Below are positions 9,001 through 32,000 of a stretch of DNA of 32,000 nt, one piece after another. Source of the DNA: Schaedlerella arabinosiphila (GTDB lineage Bacteria; Bacillota; Clostridia; Lachnospirales; Lachnospiraceae). The position numbers are program-made. The stretch lies in contig NZ_RHJS01000002.1 in NCBI RefSeq assembly GCF_003885045.1, forward strand, positions 4,301,302 to 4,333,301, in the 5' to 3' direction. Each line of letters begins with the position of its first letter. Position 1 is the stretch's first letter.

Positions 9001-12000
9001 CACAAAGCTCCGCCACCATGCTGTCCTTGATATATGCCGCATACTCACGCAGGAAAATCACACGCCCGTAACGGTTGCCGATACGGAAATAGTCTTTTTC
9101 AAACTCAAAAGAGTCGGGGCAGATATAATCCTTGAAGTCGTGACCTTTCCGCATGGTCTGTGCCATGTCAAAGGAAAACGCCGTTTCTTCGCCTGTGCGG
9201 TAAAAATCATGGAAGATACGCAGCTTGTCACCCGCATCCAGTTCCGTACACTTTGAGCCAAGACGGTTAAAATGCCCGATAAGGTCAGCACCCACACGTG
9301 CAAAATAATTCCTCGCTTCCTCGATATTCTTCTTGCAGACGGAGATTGTCACATACTTATCCTGCACGATAGAATTAGCCCCCGTCGCCTTATCAAGCAG
9401 CATTTTGTTATACTCTTTACGGTATTTATCCAATTCGTCCCCCGCCATCGGGATAAGGATGGTCTGCTCAAAATCCGCCTTGTTGAGCCTGCGGTTGTTG
9501 ATGGTGATTTTCGTGGTCGCCCCGCTGTCGAGGGCATTGAGAAGCTCCGAGTATTCAAGGAACATGGCTTCCTTGTCCTCACGGCTCGCCACGGCATAGT
9601 TGATGTCCTCAAACTTAAAGGTCTTTGCGTATTTGTTTCTGCCCACGAGGAAAATGCCGTCCTCCCACATGGTCTTTAACGGTATGACCGCCTGCACCGA
9701 TTTCGGCACGACAAACCTTTCCTTATCCTGCTTGAACAGATTTCTGAGCGTCTTAATCATGGTCTACCTCCTTACGCTTCCTTACTTTTTTATTCTTCTT
9801 TCCTGCCTTTTCTGTTTCCCCCGTTTTTCTGCTTCTTTTCGCCCTGCGTTTCCGCTTCTTCCGCTTTTTCTGCACGGCGGGCGTTCCCTTTTCATGGGCT
9901 TCAATGGCGTTCTTCACCGCTTCGTAATATAGATTCTCTGGCACAAACAGGAGTTTCTTCGGCATAATGAACTCCGATTTTATCCACGCCCACACAAACT
10001 GCTCTGCGGTCATGCCGTTGTACCTTACAAATCCCATCACCGCAAAGGGCGAAGCACCCAGAACGCACATCCAGCTTACGGTTTCCATCCCGAACCTGCC
10101 ACGGAGCAGGAAAAACAAGCCCACCGCCACGCCGCAGGCAAGGACAGAGAAAAGGAACTGCCGCATCGACAGCCCGAAAAACATACTCTCCGTGTAATTA
10201 CGGATTTCCTTATTTATCTTTACTTCCAATCATAAACACCTCCTATCGTTCCAAATCCTTATGGCTTATTGTACGTTCCGATTTCGGGTTATAAATACCC
10301 ATCACATCCATACCTAAATACCCGACCTTTTTTTCCAGTCGTTCTTTCGTAATACCGTTCCGCTTACAATATCCAAGATATTTCTGCATCCCTTTCTCAT
10401 GTTCTATGCCGCCATCATGCCAATCCTCAATGGTATACCATACGCCCGCATGACAGTCCAATGTCATGCCTGCAATCTCATAGCCTGCCTGCAGGTTTTC
10501 AAACAGGTCACGCTCGAAATTAAATCCCCAAAGGTCAATTTCCCCACTATCTGCAATCGGATTGAACTGAATTGCAACATCTTCACATCCTGCAACAGCT
10601 ATTACATCTTTGGCATGGGGATACTTCCCTTTGGCAAGGACATACATCAGCCCATAGTTTTTTTCCTTCCCCAATTCCCTGTTTTGCTGATACCCATTTG
10701 TACGCTTCAAGGCTCTCTCTGCTAAACGCCACATTTTTTCTTTGCTTAAATTCATTTGCCAGTCCCCACTTTCCTTTTTTACAAGCCCATCATTTCACGC
10801 ACAACACGGTCTGCCATCTTAACCGCACCGACAAGGACGAGCATATTAAATACCAGTTCCCCGATATAACCCCATACCATTGTGACCGCTGCCGCATCGG
10901 GATTGACGACGGGCGGGGAAGCCGCAAACACCGAAAAGATGATACAGGCAAGCACGATAATCGCACCCTCTAGGCACACGGCACAATAGCTCTTGATGAA
11001 GCTCCTGCCTACACTCTGGCTCGGCTCTCCCGCAAAAGAGGAAAGAGGGACGGGAGCGATGGCAGTATAAAGGTACAGTTTGAAAAACCTGCCGTACACC
11101 GACATTATCATAATAAACGACAGCACTGTAATGAACAGCCCGCCGATAAGCGTAACCGCCCATAGGGGAATGCTCTCAAAAAAGCCGCAGTCCTCCACGG
11201 CTGTCACTATCTCCTGCGGCAATACCGTCTTTTGTGCCGTGCCGAAGCCTGCGGCTTTCATAATCGCCCCAATTACCCCCTGCACTATCTGGAACAGTGC
11301 CATCATCAGCTCCAAGCCGTAAGTCACCGCACCTTTGGCAAGTGCAAAGCGGATAAACAACTTCAATGCGTGTTCGGGCTTCTTTACGCTTGCAAAGTCG
11401 CCGCAGGTACGCATCACGCCCACGACAAAGAACAGCACGAGCAGGGCAAGCCCGATTGCCTGCAATGCACCGTGGATGTCAACGATGACTTTCCATATCG
11501 CACCGCCTTTGAAGTTCTCTGGGGATTGGGTAATGAGCTGCCATATCTCGGCTAACTTCCCATTCCAAGTGTTAAGGGCATTCTCCAAGTTCTGGACTAC
11601 CCAGTTATCTGACATTCGACCACCTCCGTTCTTAAAATTGGATAGCGGGGCAAGTTCCGCAGAGCGGATCTGCCCCCGCTATCCCTGTCTTATATCAGTC
11701 TATTGTTTCTGTCTGCTGCCTTACTCTGCCTTAACCTGTGATGAGGGTCAGAATCTCTTTTGCAAAAGTAATCACAACGCCGCCTGCAAGTGTCAGAAAA
11801 CCGTTCGCCCTCTGGGACGGGTCGTGGGATTTCAGCGACAAGCCCACCTGCACGATGCCGAAGCCGAGCATAATCATCCCGACCGCCTTAATCAGACCGA
11901 AGATAAAGTTTGACAGGTTGTTGACCACGGCAATCGGGTCATTGGCGGCAAAAGCTGTTGTCGTGCCAAAGACCATGCAGCATACTAAAGCGGCATACAC

Positions 12001-30000: not shown

Positions 30001-32000
30001 TCTCCATGAATGGTAGGGAGAGGTGTCGTTGGAGCTGTGGGAAGATACATACACGCCGTCTTTCTTTACCGTGATGCGGTTGATTTGCTCCGTACTCATT
30101 CCATCCCACCTCCCAGAAATGAGATGACCTTGTTCCCCTTGATGCTTTTTTGCAGCTCATTGATGAGCGTGATGTCCGCTACCGTGATGCCCTGCATGGA
30201 GAGAATGTCGTCCATCGTCATGGCAGCAATGGCTTTTTCCTCGGTAAATCCTGCGTCCAGAACCTTGTTTAAGACTCTGACGGCTTTTGGGTTGACTGGC
30301 ATATCCCATACCTCCTATCGTTCATGGTCTTTTTGCTTCGGGGCTTTCTGTGCGGACGGCGGCTCCTGCGGCTTCGGCTCATACGTTGCCCCGTTTTTCT
30401 CCATGCGCTCGGCAAACTCACAGATGTGGTAAATGTCGCCGCCCCTGCCAGAACTTAACTCTAAATGGGTTTCGTCGATATAGCGGCAGGCATGTTCAAA
30501 TTTTTCTTTCCACGCCGTCGTAATGATGATTTTCCCGCCGTCTGGGATGCGGAACAGTTCTTTGTAATGGGGGTCAATAAATCGGATTCCCTTTTCTGCT
30601 CTGGATATATGCCTGTCGAGCCATTCTTTCACATAGCAGTAGCAGTAAAAGTTATAGTCGCCCTTTGTCGGGTTGCAGCGGAGCAGGAAAGCGTGTTTCT
30701 CTGTATCCACACGGAAGCCGTACTCCGTGCAATAGTTCCCATTAAAGCCACTATCGGGAAATTCCTTTGTAAATGCACCCATGTCATAGCGGTTATGCAG
30801 AAGCCCCTTATCTTCACGCAGGGCGTTGATAATATCGTCCAGACCTGTCTTGAACTCGTCCGTTTTCCATTGTTCTCTGGTATCAAACCAAGTGGTATGA
30901 AAGCCATATCCAGAGGGGGCAAAATCACCTCGGAGATGCCCAATACATCCCGTCTGCCCCTCAAGCTGCATACTCTGGGCGTAGGTGTATTTCTGTTCGG
31001 ATTGCATCAAAGCCCGTACCTCCATCAGCGTTCCTCCCTGCTCTTTGATTTCTTCGCCTTTTCCTGTTCCTTGATTTTTGCGAGTGCTTCCTTTGCCCAG
31101 TCGGGCATCTTCTCTGGCTTGATTTCCCCAAGCAGGTCGCACCGTTCCCATCGGGCGTGCTTTCCGTCCGCAAGGGAAGTGCCGAACACCGCCTGCCCCC
31201 TGCCGCCCAACGCTCCGTGACCGCCGTCCGCCAATACAAGCTGGTAGGCAGAATGTCGGTATTCGTGGCGGTTGACTTCGGCATTGATGACAACGACCTT
31301 TCCCACAATGCTGCCGCATTTATTATCTGGGATGCAGTCGTCTATGGTAAACGGGGTCATGTCAAACTTGAACTGTTCCTGCTCGGCTCTTACACTTTCT
31401 ATCTGTTCCTGCACCCTGTCGGTAAACATCTGCATGGCTTCCAGATAGTCGTCAGAGCCGACCGCATCCGTCACCCATTCTGCGGACAGCGGGTTATCGT
31501 AAGTGCAACAGCAGACAAGATACGGGTATTCTTCTTTCTCATCTATGCCGAACACGACTTCCTTTTTTCCGATGTGGATGCTCTGCGTGACCTCGTAGGA
31601 GCTAATCATCCGTTTTTCTTCGTTCTCCATCGGGATTCTCCTTTCTTTGCTTTTTCTCCCTCTGCCAGTCTAAAACCTTTCGGATGCAGACGTCGCAGAA
31701 GATGACACGGCTGTCCTTATATCGGGGATAAGGACAGTCCGTGCAGTCATATTTCTTGTCATTTTCATTGTTTCCCGTGCTACCGCTCACGCCCATCGTG
31801 CTGCTTCGCCTTTTTATCGTGCTGTTGGTTGTATGGCATCTGGCACTCCGACTGGTAGCGTTCGTTCAGCTTTTCCCTCGCCGCTTCAAGGGTGTTGCAG
31901 TAGCAGCCCCAATAATAGTTGTCGCCGCCCTTGCAGTACCAGCATACATAAGGGTTCGGGGCTTTCGGGTGATGCCCGATGACAAGCTCCGTGTTCCCGA

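Follow-up and report, generated by a model that had tools for sequence, protein, structure and literature searches.

An arginine-terminal C-terminal tag shared by unrelated proteins of Tn1549-family integrative and conjugative elements

A 32,000-nucleotide (nt) stretch of the Schaedlerella arabinosiphila genome (NCBI RefSeq assembly GCF_003885045.1, contig NZ_RHJS01000002.1, positions 4,301,302 to 4,333,301; the whole stretch is called the window below) carries an integrative and conjugative element (ICE) that Pfam matches and gene order assign to the Tn1549 family, with a MOBP7 relaxase and a Gram-positive VirB4/VirD4 type IV secretion system (T4SS). Eleven of the 27 ICE genes called between positions 4325 and 32000, ~40% of the element's proteins, encode products that end in Glu-Arg or Ala-Arg. 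At the level of sequence, comparison with 80 divergent loci of the same family showed that this ending is conserved as an amino-acid feature in at least 17 unrelated ICE families, none of which belongs to the transfer machinery, and that it is specific to one lineage. The ending is very likely a shared recognition tag. By analogy with other T4SS it may be a docking or translocation signal for the VirD4-type coupling protein, a reading that we regard as evenly balanced.

Results

An arginine-terminal tail on eleven proteins of the window

The original prediction had listed nine proteins ending in exactly -ER among about 26 ICE proteins. All nine were recovered in open reading frames (ORFs) with stops at the predicted positions, and the count of ICE genes came to 27. 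Two -AR endings that had also been named, on PcfB (14952) and on the Toprim protein (18136), were present as well (Table 1). Within the window, every ICE gene is on the minus strand. In line with the proposed restriction of the tail to soluble proteins, none of the eleven tailed proteins contains a transmembrane (TM)-like segment, every TM-bearing protein of the window lacks the tail, and it is absent from VirB4, VirD4, the VirB6-like protein, the Maff2/pilin-like protein, PrgI, the sortase and the lysozyme-CHAP hydrolase. Two further ICE proteins are Arg-terminal without carrying the motif, namely the DUF6075 protein (...HTR) and the protein at 19559 (...SNR).

Charged residues are generally enriched at C-termini, which could favour an origin of the pattern in chance or in the composition of Lys/Glu/Arg-rich tails. 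At an internal ER dipeptide frequency of 0.006, however, the binomial p is ~4e-12 even for 8/27 -ER gene ends, and it stays at ~1e-12 for the window when tail composition is taken as the null. Moreover, the split between tagged and untagged families is conserved over the 80 loci, and we regard chance as a practically negligible explanation. When all three frames of the minus strand were considered, ER codons preceded 11 of 962 stops, nine of these 11 being real gene ends; on the plus strand they preceded 3 of 875.

Besides the short tail, Pfam revealed no domain shared among the tagged proteins. NCBIfam gave no match for ten ICE proteins, nine of which are tagged, and a PDB sequence search returned no match. 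The 10243 protein lacks both Pfam and NCBIfam matches, and none of the 80 loci contains a homologue of it. The Pfam domains of the DUF3848, Toprim and DUF3801 proteins stop 11-35 residues short of the C-terminus. Likewise, in the AlphaFold2 model of the ArdC-like protein (mean predicted local distance difference test score, pLDDT, 93.7) the fold extends to residue 276, and the remaining 11 residues form a coil with a pLDDT of ~60. The tag is appended outside the folded domain, at the extreme C-terminus, and is unstructured.

The assignment of the ArdC-like protein, for which Pfam has no match, rests on its model and on a distant homologue. Foldseek gave R388 ArdC as the top matches (6i89 and 6sna; E 8e-7, prob 1.0, TM-score 0.52), and the model shows the two-domain fold of ArdC, with an N-terminal single-stranded DNA-binding domain and a metalloprotease-like domain. 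The protein is homologous to residues 408-681 of PcfD of pCF10 (BLASTP E 1e-17). An HExxH motif was not found in the window protein, where KEVSA is aligned to HEMTH of PcfD, and because of this replacement the protein probably combines an ArdC fold with a lost metalloprotease activity.

Conservation of the ending in divergent loci

A search for close homologues of the ArdC-like protein returned only sequences at least 95% identical to it and was uninformative. The 80 divergent Tn1549-family loci were obtained from GTDB species genomes with a search built on a 13-sequence ArdC-like subset, and their ArdC-like proteins share 40-58% identity with the query. Genes were called with our own codon-bias and interval-scheduling script, which reproduces the gene set of the window, and 1288 proteins of the loci were clustered into families. 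As controls we used the untagged families of the same loci and other Firmicutes conjugative elements in place of the host chromosome. The genes at the left end of the window were not taken as host background, because the genes for elongation factor G (EF-G) and an S7-like protein located there are probably ICE cargo.

Among 107 full-length ArdC-like representatives (30-45% identity), 97 end in Arg, including 40 with -AR and 38 with -ER, and the preceding 10-15 residues vary freely. On this evidence, -AR and -ER are one motif. The check on orthologues of related ICEs, which the original prediction had called for, thus found the ending conserved down to 30-45% identity. For the 152-aa protein encoded directly upstream of the polyvalent gene, which is specific to the window, -ER was found in 112/120 homologues of 73-91% identity, with positions -3 to -8 variable.

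Altogether, at least 17 unrelated ICE protein families have a terminal Arg in 75-100% of their members, mostly as [E/A]-R. The ArdC-like family reaches 98% R and 92% [AE]R, the family of the 65-aa protein (n=82) 85% R and 67% [AE]R, PcfB (n=73) 89% R, mainly as -ER, Toprim (n=43) 81% R and DUF3848 (n=23) 96% R, and the polyvalent family (n=33) is 100% R-terminal despite net acidic tails. The two small families of the 230-aa and 201-aa proteins are R-terminal in 4/5 and 4/4 members, respectively. The YodL+DUF3846 family, two DpnD/PcfM-like families, the DUF3560-like and DUF6674 families and others likewise range from 75 to 100%. In the untagged families the R-terminal share is low, with 5% for VirD4, 5% for VirB4, 4% for the hydrolase, 8% for the sortase and 5% for the NikA-like family, 0% for the Maff2-like, VirB6-like, PrgI and DUF6664 families, and 0-18% for the actin-like, helix-turn-helix regulator and phosphatase families.

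When the tagged families were pooled and compared with the other families of at least three members, a terminal R was present on 385/421 tagged-family vs 58/593 other-family proteins, and a terminal [EA]R on 305/421 vs 4/593. Within the same elements, the motif is thus rare on proteins outside the tagged families, against the suspicion that it might be equally frequent on unrelated proteins. Families with at least five members are bimodal for the percentage of R-terminal proteins (24, 1, 4, 1 and 13 families across five bins). No locus showed a concerted loss of the tag; exceptions were sporadic and often consisted of ER plus 1-2 added residues.

The family-weighted profile has R at 0.94 in position -1, and E (0.51), A (0.22) or S (0.09) in position -2, preceded by D/E/R/K at -3 to -5 and K/R/P at -6 to -10. 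What is conserved of the Lys-rich, Glu-Arg-terminated tail of the original prediction is the final Arg, preceded by Glu or Ala; a Lys-rich stretch is found in many tails but not in all. Over the last 15 residues, the net charge averages +1.5 to +5.9 in most tagged families and -2.3 in the polyvalent family. The tail of PcfB is the longest and most basic (~+5.9 over the last 15 residues).

Retention of arginine irrespective of the gene junction

An ending of this kind might be a mere by-product of constraints at gene junctions, such as overlap with the Shine-Dalgarno (SD) sequence of the next gene, termination-reinitiation coupling or a context that favours GNR-MGR-stop. Some junctions of the window fit such an origin. 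Three of the 11 tails overlap the SD of the next gene (19132 GAAAGGTGA, 14952 AAAGGAGCAAGATAAGCATG, 18136 GAAAGGAGG): at 19132, GAAAGGTGA is at the same time the SD of the following gene, and the PcfB tail at 14952 overlaps the SD AAAGGAG. Five stops in the window directly abut GGAGG, and the stop TAG at 10243 directly abuts GAGGTG, the SD of prgI.

The terminal Arg, however, is kept whatever the neighbour. It was found in 33/35 cases with a convergent neighbour, in 56/66 with the next gene >60 nt away, in 89/97 with an overlapping next gene and in 184/200 with a distance of 0-25 nt. It is spelled with all six codons, with several codons per family and from both codon boxes; in the ArdC-like family AGA occurs 32, AGG 22, CGA 10, CGG 6, CGC 5 and CGT 3 times. 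Machinery genes are equally tightly coupled, yet never carry the tag. Because Arg is retained with any neighbour, several codons are used and the coupled machinery genes lack the tag, it is the residue itself that is under selection. In addition, out-of-frame stops almost never stand behind ER codons, and the homologous genes of the pCF10 type are untagged.

SD overlap as the cause was rejected, as it concerns only 3/11 tails and Arg is kept without a downstream gene. The original prediction had reached the same view, and comparative data support it on the cause, although three tails do overlap the next SD. The 79-nt spacer that it gave behind the polyvalent gene is correct (20981 to 20901). 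The stops at 13873 (within the virD4 start) and 31780 do lie inside the next gene, whereas that at 19132 does not, the best next start being at 19103.

Synonymous codon choice at the gene ends is compatible with a constraint at the junction. In the tagged genes of the window and of the 80 loci (L001-L080), terminal Arg is encoded by AGA at.37, CGA at.275 and CGC+CGT at.07, vs.10,.08 and.45 for internal Arg, so that AGA and CGA make up 65% of terminal and 18% of internal Arg codons. Ala at -2 is GCA or GCG in 88%. This purine bias is limited to codons -1 and -2, is also seen where no gene follows, and suggests that translation or the RNA imposes a further constraint. Tail-wide composition was rejected as its source, since codons -3 to -25 show normal synonymous usage.

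The junctions 10240-10265 and 29638-29663, which belong to unrelated genes, share a near-identical sequence of 24-26 nt, AARGATTTGGAACGATARGGAGGTGT (KDLER, stop and SD), synonymous positions included. These 24 shared nt would suit an origin of the tag at the junction, and they look like a local recombination or conversion event because such sharing is rare across the loci. A mobile junction cassette or gene conversion as the general cause was rejected, as junctions within a locus are scarcely more alike than those between loci (4.98 vs 4.80 identical bases of 15). Nor was selection for faithful termination by tandem stops supported: a further in-frame stop in the next three codons is present in 6% vs 8.5% in the controls. 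Neither junction cassettes nor tandem stops account for the codon bias. As the sole cause, junction constraints are largely refuted, and we consider it very improbable that they account for the tag.

Lineage specificity and the acidic end of VirD4

The VirD4 protein of the window ends in an acidic motif, YELLSDEDLEEIFNL (12096-12140). In the VirD4 family the last 20 residues have a mean net charge of -3.9, and the motif hLL[ST][DE][DE]Eh[EA]E is near-universal in VirD4 of the 80 loci; it was not found in PcfC of pCF10, in VirD4 of S. agalactiae or in VirD4 of B. thuringiensis.

For a comparison of lineages, the annotated or called proteins of each element were counted. An element of Cohnella, with a VirD4 64% identical to that of the window, has 7/17 R-terminal proteins, and one of Subdoligranulum (VirD4 52%) has 7/21; in both, many proteins are tagged and VirD4 has the acidic motif. 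Elements of Brevibacillus, Vescimonas, Paenibacillus, C. perfringens and L. rhamnosus (VirD4 38-46%) have 1-6 R-terminal proteins each (of 12-26). In all five of these intermediates the VirD4 C-terminus is acidic and an Arg-terminal basic tail is encoded directly upstream of virD4 (PcfB/DUF3801, small ORF); in L. rhamnosus the ArdC-like protein and the relaxase are Arg-terminal as well. S. agalactiae pR31 (VirD4 43%) has 3/24 R-terminal proteins, a PcfB that ends in ...KEQSL and a basic VirD4 end. The B. thuringiensis plasmid pBMB0230 (VirD4 40%, 1/26) is untagged, and in pCF10 (VirD4 32%, 2/41) PcfB ends in ...GRKL and the ArdC-like PcfD in ...NPTRF. A Tn916-like element on pCF10, with an FtsK-like and not VirD4-type protein, is also untagged (2/34). 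A tblastn search for PcfB in plasmids gave 5 records only.

Because homologous PcfB and ArdC-like proteins of other systems lack the tag, it is by this comparison not intrinsic to the folds, and is an add-on that has spread over many families of one T4SS lineage. Among the elements compared, the tag occurs in those whose coupling protein has an acidic end.

Discussion

A candidate signal for the coupling protein

The tag comprises 8-25 unstructured residues that, as a rule, are rich in Lys, Arg and Pro from -10 to -6 and in Asp, Glu and Arg from -5 to -3, and it closes with [Glu/Ala]-Arg-COOH; a common receptor would read the end of the peptide. VirD4 appears to be the best candidate for this receptor because of the analogy to Arg-based VirB/D4 signals, the positive C-termini of proteins transferred by the F system (the F conjutome) and the identity of the tagged proteins. 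The tag may dock these proteins on the VirD4-type coupling protein, probably via its conserved acidic C-terminal motif, and the docked proteins would be recruited to the type IV channel and moved with the DNA into the recipient. There, the ArdC-like, primase-like and DpnD/PcfM-like proteins, ParA/ParB and the polyvalent methylase-helicase would protect and establish the element. In its most specific form, the proposal takes [Glu/Ala]-Arg-COOH plus a short basic/acidic linker as the T4SS secretion signal of the Tn1549 family, read by the acidic C-terminal motif of VirD4; this form is tentative, and we lean slightly against rather than towards it. PcfB, always encoded directly upstream of virD4, is a possible ancestral bearer of the tag because its Arg-terminal basic tail persists in more distant relatives.

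Several points weigh against a signal for export through VirD4. The relaxase, the one certain and obligate substrate, belongs to a family that is 52% R-terminal and never ends in [AE]R. The polyvalent tails are net negative, so charge attraction to the acidic VirD4 tail cannot be the whole story, and PcfB may act in the donor and not be exported. The third-base purine bias (mainly A) at the last two codons is left unexplained by a translocation model. The link between the tag and the acidic motif of VirD4 rests on few independent lineages, and the 80 loci are mutually related, include many contigs of metagenome-assembled genomes and carry gene calls from our own script. Finally, the tagged families were defined post hoc, though their distribution is bimodal.

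The proteins could instead be gathered by, or passively carried along with, another receptor, such as a relaxosome partner, the transferred single strand or DNA in general, or PcfB as an adaptor, with VirD4 not reading the tail. The tails are basic, many tagged proteins act on DNA (ArdC-like, Toprim, ParB, polyvalent methylase-helicase), and PcfB has the longest and most basic tail, all of which suits this idea. A near-invariant last residue combined with variable basic content, however, argues for a protein pocket on the peptide end and not for non-specific DNA binding; the polyvalent tails are net acidic and yet all R-terminal, and PcfB is itself tagged. We therefore judge another receptor to be unlikely.

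A role in stability or turnover was also considered, in which the tag would be a C-terminal degron or anti-degron for a host AAA+ protease or unfoldase, so that establishment proteins are kept low in the donor or cleared after establishment. Tail-specific and ClpX-type recognition operates at the C-terminus, and a tag common to many unrelated proteins of one element and located exactly there would fit. Bacterial C-terminal degrons, however, are mostly non-polar (ssrA -LAA), whereas the ending found here is charged, E/A-R, and lacks ssrA-like hydrophobicity. Furthermore, these elements have a very wide host range (Lachnospiraceae, Oscillospiraceae, C. difficile, Cohnella), and the tag follows the VirD4 lineage of the element, not the host. 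An unfoldase tag is conceivable, as T4SS substrates must be unfolded (PMC5826034). On balance, a stability tag seems rather improbable.

Relation to known systems

The proposed reading by VirD4 has its closest counterpart in the VirB/D4 transport signal, which is Arg-based according to Vergunst 2005 as cited in PMC10025392. By the account in PMC10025392, the signals of the Agrobacterium VirB/D4 substrates (VirF, VirE2, VirE3, VirD2) are located, like the tag, at the extreme C-terminus, are unstructured and hydrophilic, are common to unrelated substrates and are absent from the machinery; dependence on VirD4 is known there and presumed here. The same source names positive charge as a requirement and Arg as the key residue of the Agrobacterium signal, whereas the importance of Arg is suggested here by its conservation. 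The Agrobacterium consensus R-x7-R-x-R-x-R, as reported in PMC10025392, is loose and has no fixed last residue, and the family-weighted profile of the tag does not match it. Unlike that signal, the tag has a basic part made mostly of Lys, then an acidic patch, and Arg as the last residue in 94%, and it belongs to a Gram-positive host system. By this analogy the tag would be a functional analogue of the Agrobacterium signal and not the same motif.

The F-type T4SS of pED208 translocates ParA, ParB, SSB, PsiB and 32 chromosomal proteins (PMC8406263, PMC11288057). There, positively charged C-termini can act as generic signals, although the search for a sequence consensus was unsuccessful (PMC11288057). 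The likeness lies in maintenance and anti-stress proteins that are delivered with the DNA, ParA and ParB of the present ICE being Arg-terminal; in contrast, the F signals have no consensus and are possibly internal, whereas in this element at least a third of the proteins carry one sharply defined ending. Polyvalent proteins have been predicted to be injected (PMC5512222), and for several tail-bearing types, namely primase-type Toprim proteins, ArdC, ParA/ParB and polyvalent proteins, transfer is known or predicted in other systems (PMC8406263, PMC5512222).

C-terminal modules read by VirD4 are also represented by the BID domain plus positive tail of Bartonella Bep proteins and by the Xanthomonas XVIPCD. 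These are folded domains of ~100-140 residues with or without a tail, whereas the tag is a short tail without a shared domain. As cited in PMC8406263, TraM binds TraD, the coupling protein of F, at its acidic C-terminal tail, a case in which a C-terminal extension of the coupling protein is the docking site; the acidic motif of VirD4 would be the candidate site here. TraM docks with the folded tetramerisation domain of one accessory protein, whereas many Arg-terminal tails would do so in the present system, and their pairing with VirD4 is a deduction only.

In the full-text literature searched we found neither a description of this motif nor a signal that had been defined for any Gram-positive system. 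T4SS signals of the charged C-terminal kind are known; what is new here is the sharpness of the motif, its position at the very last residue, its occurrence in a Gram-positive system and the marking of a third or more of the proteins. How conjugative type IV systems choose their protein substrates is poorly defined. If the reading as an export signal is true, the tag would be the first sharply defined T4SS substrate signal of Gram-positive bacteria that can be predicted from sequence. Very common gut ICEs would then inject a third or more of their own proteome into recipients (ArdC-like, primase, ParA/ParB and polyvalent proteins as well as many unknowns). The tag would have had PcfB as its ancestral bearer, and it could be hijacked by mobilisable elements or host proteins. 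ICEs of the Tn1549 family rank among the most abundant mobile elements in gut Firmicutes, and their cargo includes vanB-type and other resistances (PMC12084326). A motif recognisable directly in the sequence would predict the injected proteome of thousands of elements, flag those anti-defence and establishment proteins that are the first to act in the recipient, and provide a short peptide handle for engineered protein delivery or for a block of transfer at the coupling protein.

Gene content of the element and additional observations

The backbone of the element has the order pcfB-virD4-maff2-virB6-like-prgI(virB3)-virB4-hydrolase, together with a PF03432 relaxase and a MobC/NikA-like accessory protein, and the same backbone order is given for the Tn1549 family (PMC12084326). 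Close relatives are annotated with 'CD1115 family VirD4' and 'CD1110 family VirB4'. NikA/MobC-like, DUF6664, sortase and lysozyme-CHAP hydrolase proteins of the window were likewise identified with Pfam. The element continues upstream of the window, where it has genes for ParA (...ADRIR), ParB (...RGQER) and a large adhesin.

Table 1. Tailed proteins and other features of the window (positions within the 32,000-nt stretch; families as clustered from the 80 loci)
Feature	Position	Strand	C-terminal end	Tail position	Family	Basis or remark
170-aa protein, T4SS gene block	10243-10755	-	...RTISHKDLER	10243-10275		no predicted membrane segment
65-aa protein between ArdC-like gene and virD4	13873-14070	-	...KCHEER	13873-13905	0
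ArdC-like (LtrC-like) protein	14086-14949	-	...NKPPKSKGQER	14086-14118	1
PcfB/DUF3801 protein	14952-15767	-	...KRKPKSKGAR	14952-14984	2	Pfam DUF3801
DUF3991 + Toprim protein, C-terminal part of split gene	18136-18750	-	...SRERRDAR	18136-18168	7	Pfam
DUF3848 protein	19132-19479	-	...KILSGKER	19132-19164	12	Pfam
Polyvalent protein, 2881 aa	20981-29626	-	...EKKSGDRER	20981-21013	11	Pfam LPD25 + N6-MTase + SNF2 helicase
152-aa protein, directly upstream of polyvalent gene	29641-30099	-	...RKQKNKDLER	29641-29673
230-aa protein	30315-31007	-	...KAPKQKDHER	30315-30347	38
201-aa protein	31025-31630	-	...KAKKSKSREER	31025-31057	44
91-aa gene, 3' part only	31780-32000	-	...KAKQHDGRER	31780-31812		runs off the window
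VirB4	7427-9760	-				Pfam
PrgI/VirB3	9753-10229	-				Pfam
Pilin/Maff2-like protein	11731-12078	-				Pfam
VirD4-type coupling protein	12093-13886	-	untagged			Pfam T4SS-DNA_transf + TraG-D_C
PF03432 relaxase	15754-17199	-				Pfam
IS66 transposase fragment	22-762	+
EF-G, bona fide	955-3075					TIGR00484, 1081 bits
S7-like protein, divergent	3088-3561					52 bits, under cutoff
CD3324-family protein	3678-3935

The tails of the relaxase family are Arg-rich (...FRRRSGTNR, ...GREAVPGNR). The tail of the window's relaxase (15754-15812) has ...RRRSGRANR followed by seven extra residues, KDELGGI, which carry the SD of pcfB.

In the window, the DUF3991-Toprim gene consists of an ORF of 118 aa (18747-19103) and one of 204 aa (18136-18750) with a 4-nt overlap, whereas it forms one ORF of ~314 aa in 43 related elements. 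A frameshift, a pseudogene or a true division of the gene could underlie this.

The left end of the window (22-3935) has a low GC content (0.33-0.43). Short contigs were found that again carry the EF-G/S7-like pair, in one case with an uncharacterised 444-aa ORF upstream. Because of this recurrence the pair is probably accessory translation-factor cargo of ICEs and not the host str operon.

The same element was found in another genome, referred to as L083 (GCA_000403295.2, KE159610.1), where the full-length version of the gene at 31780 lies at 9576-9851. In the region 12005-20606 of L083 the polyvalent gene is shortened to 2264 aa, with a gene for a group II intron-type reverse transcriptase behind it, and Cap4-nuclease and SMC-like genes are located upstream of parA/parB.

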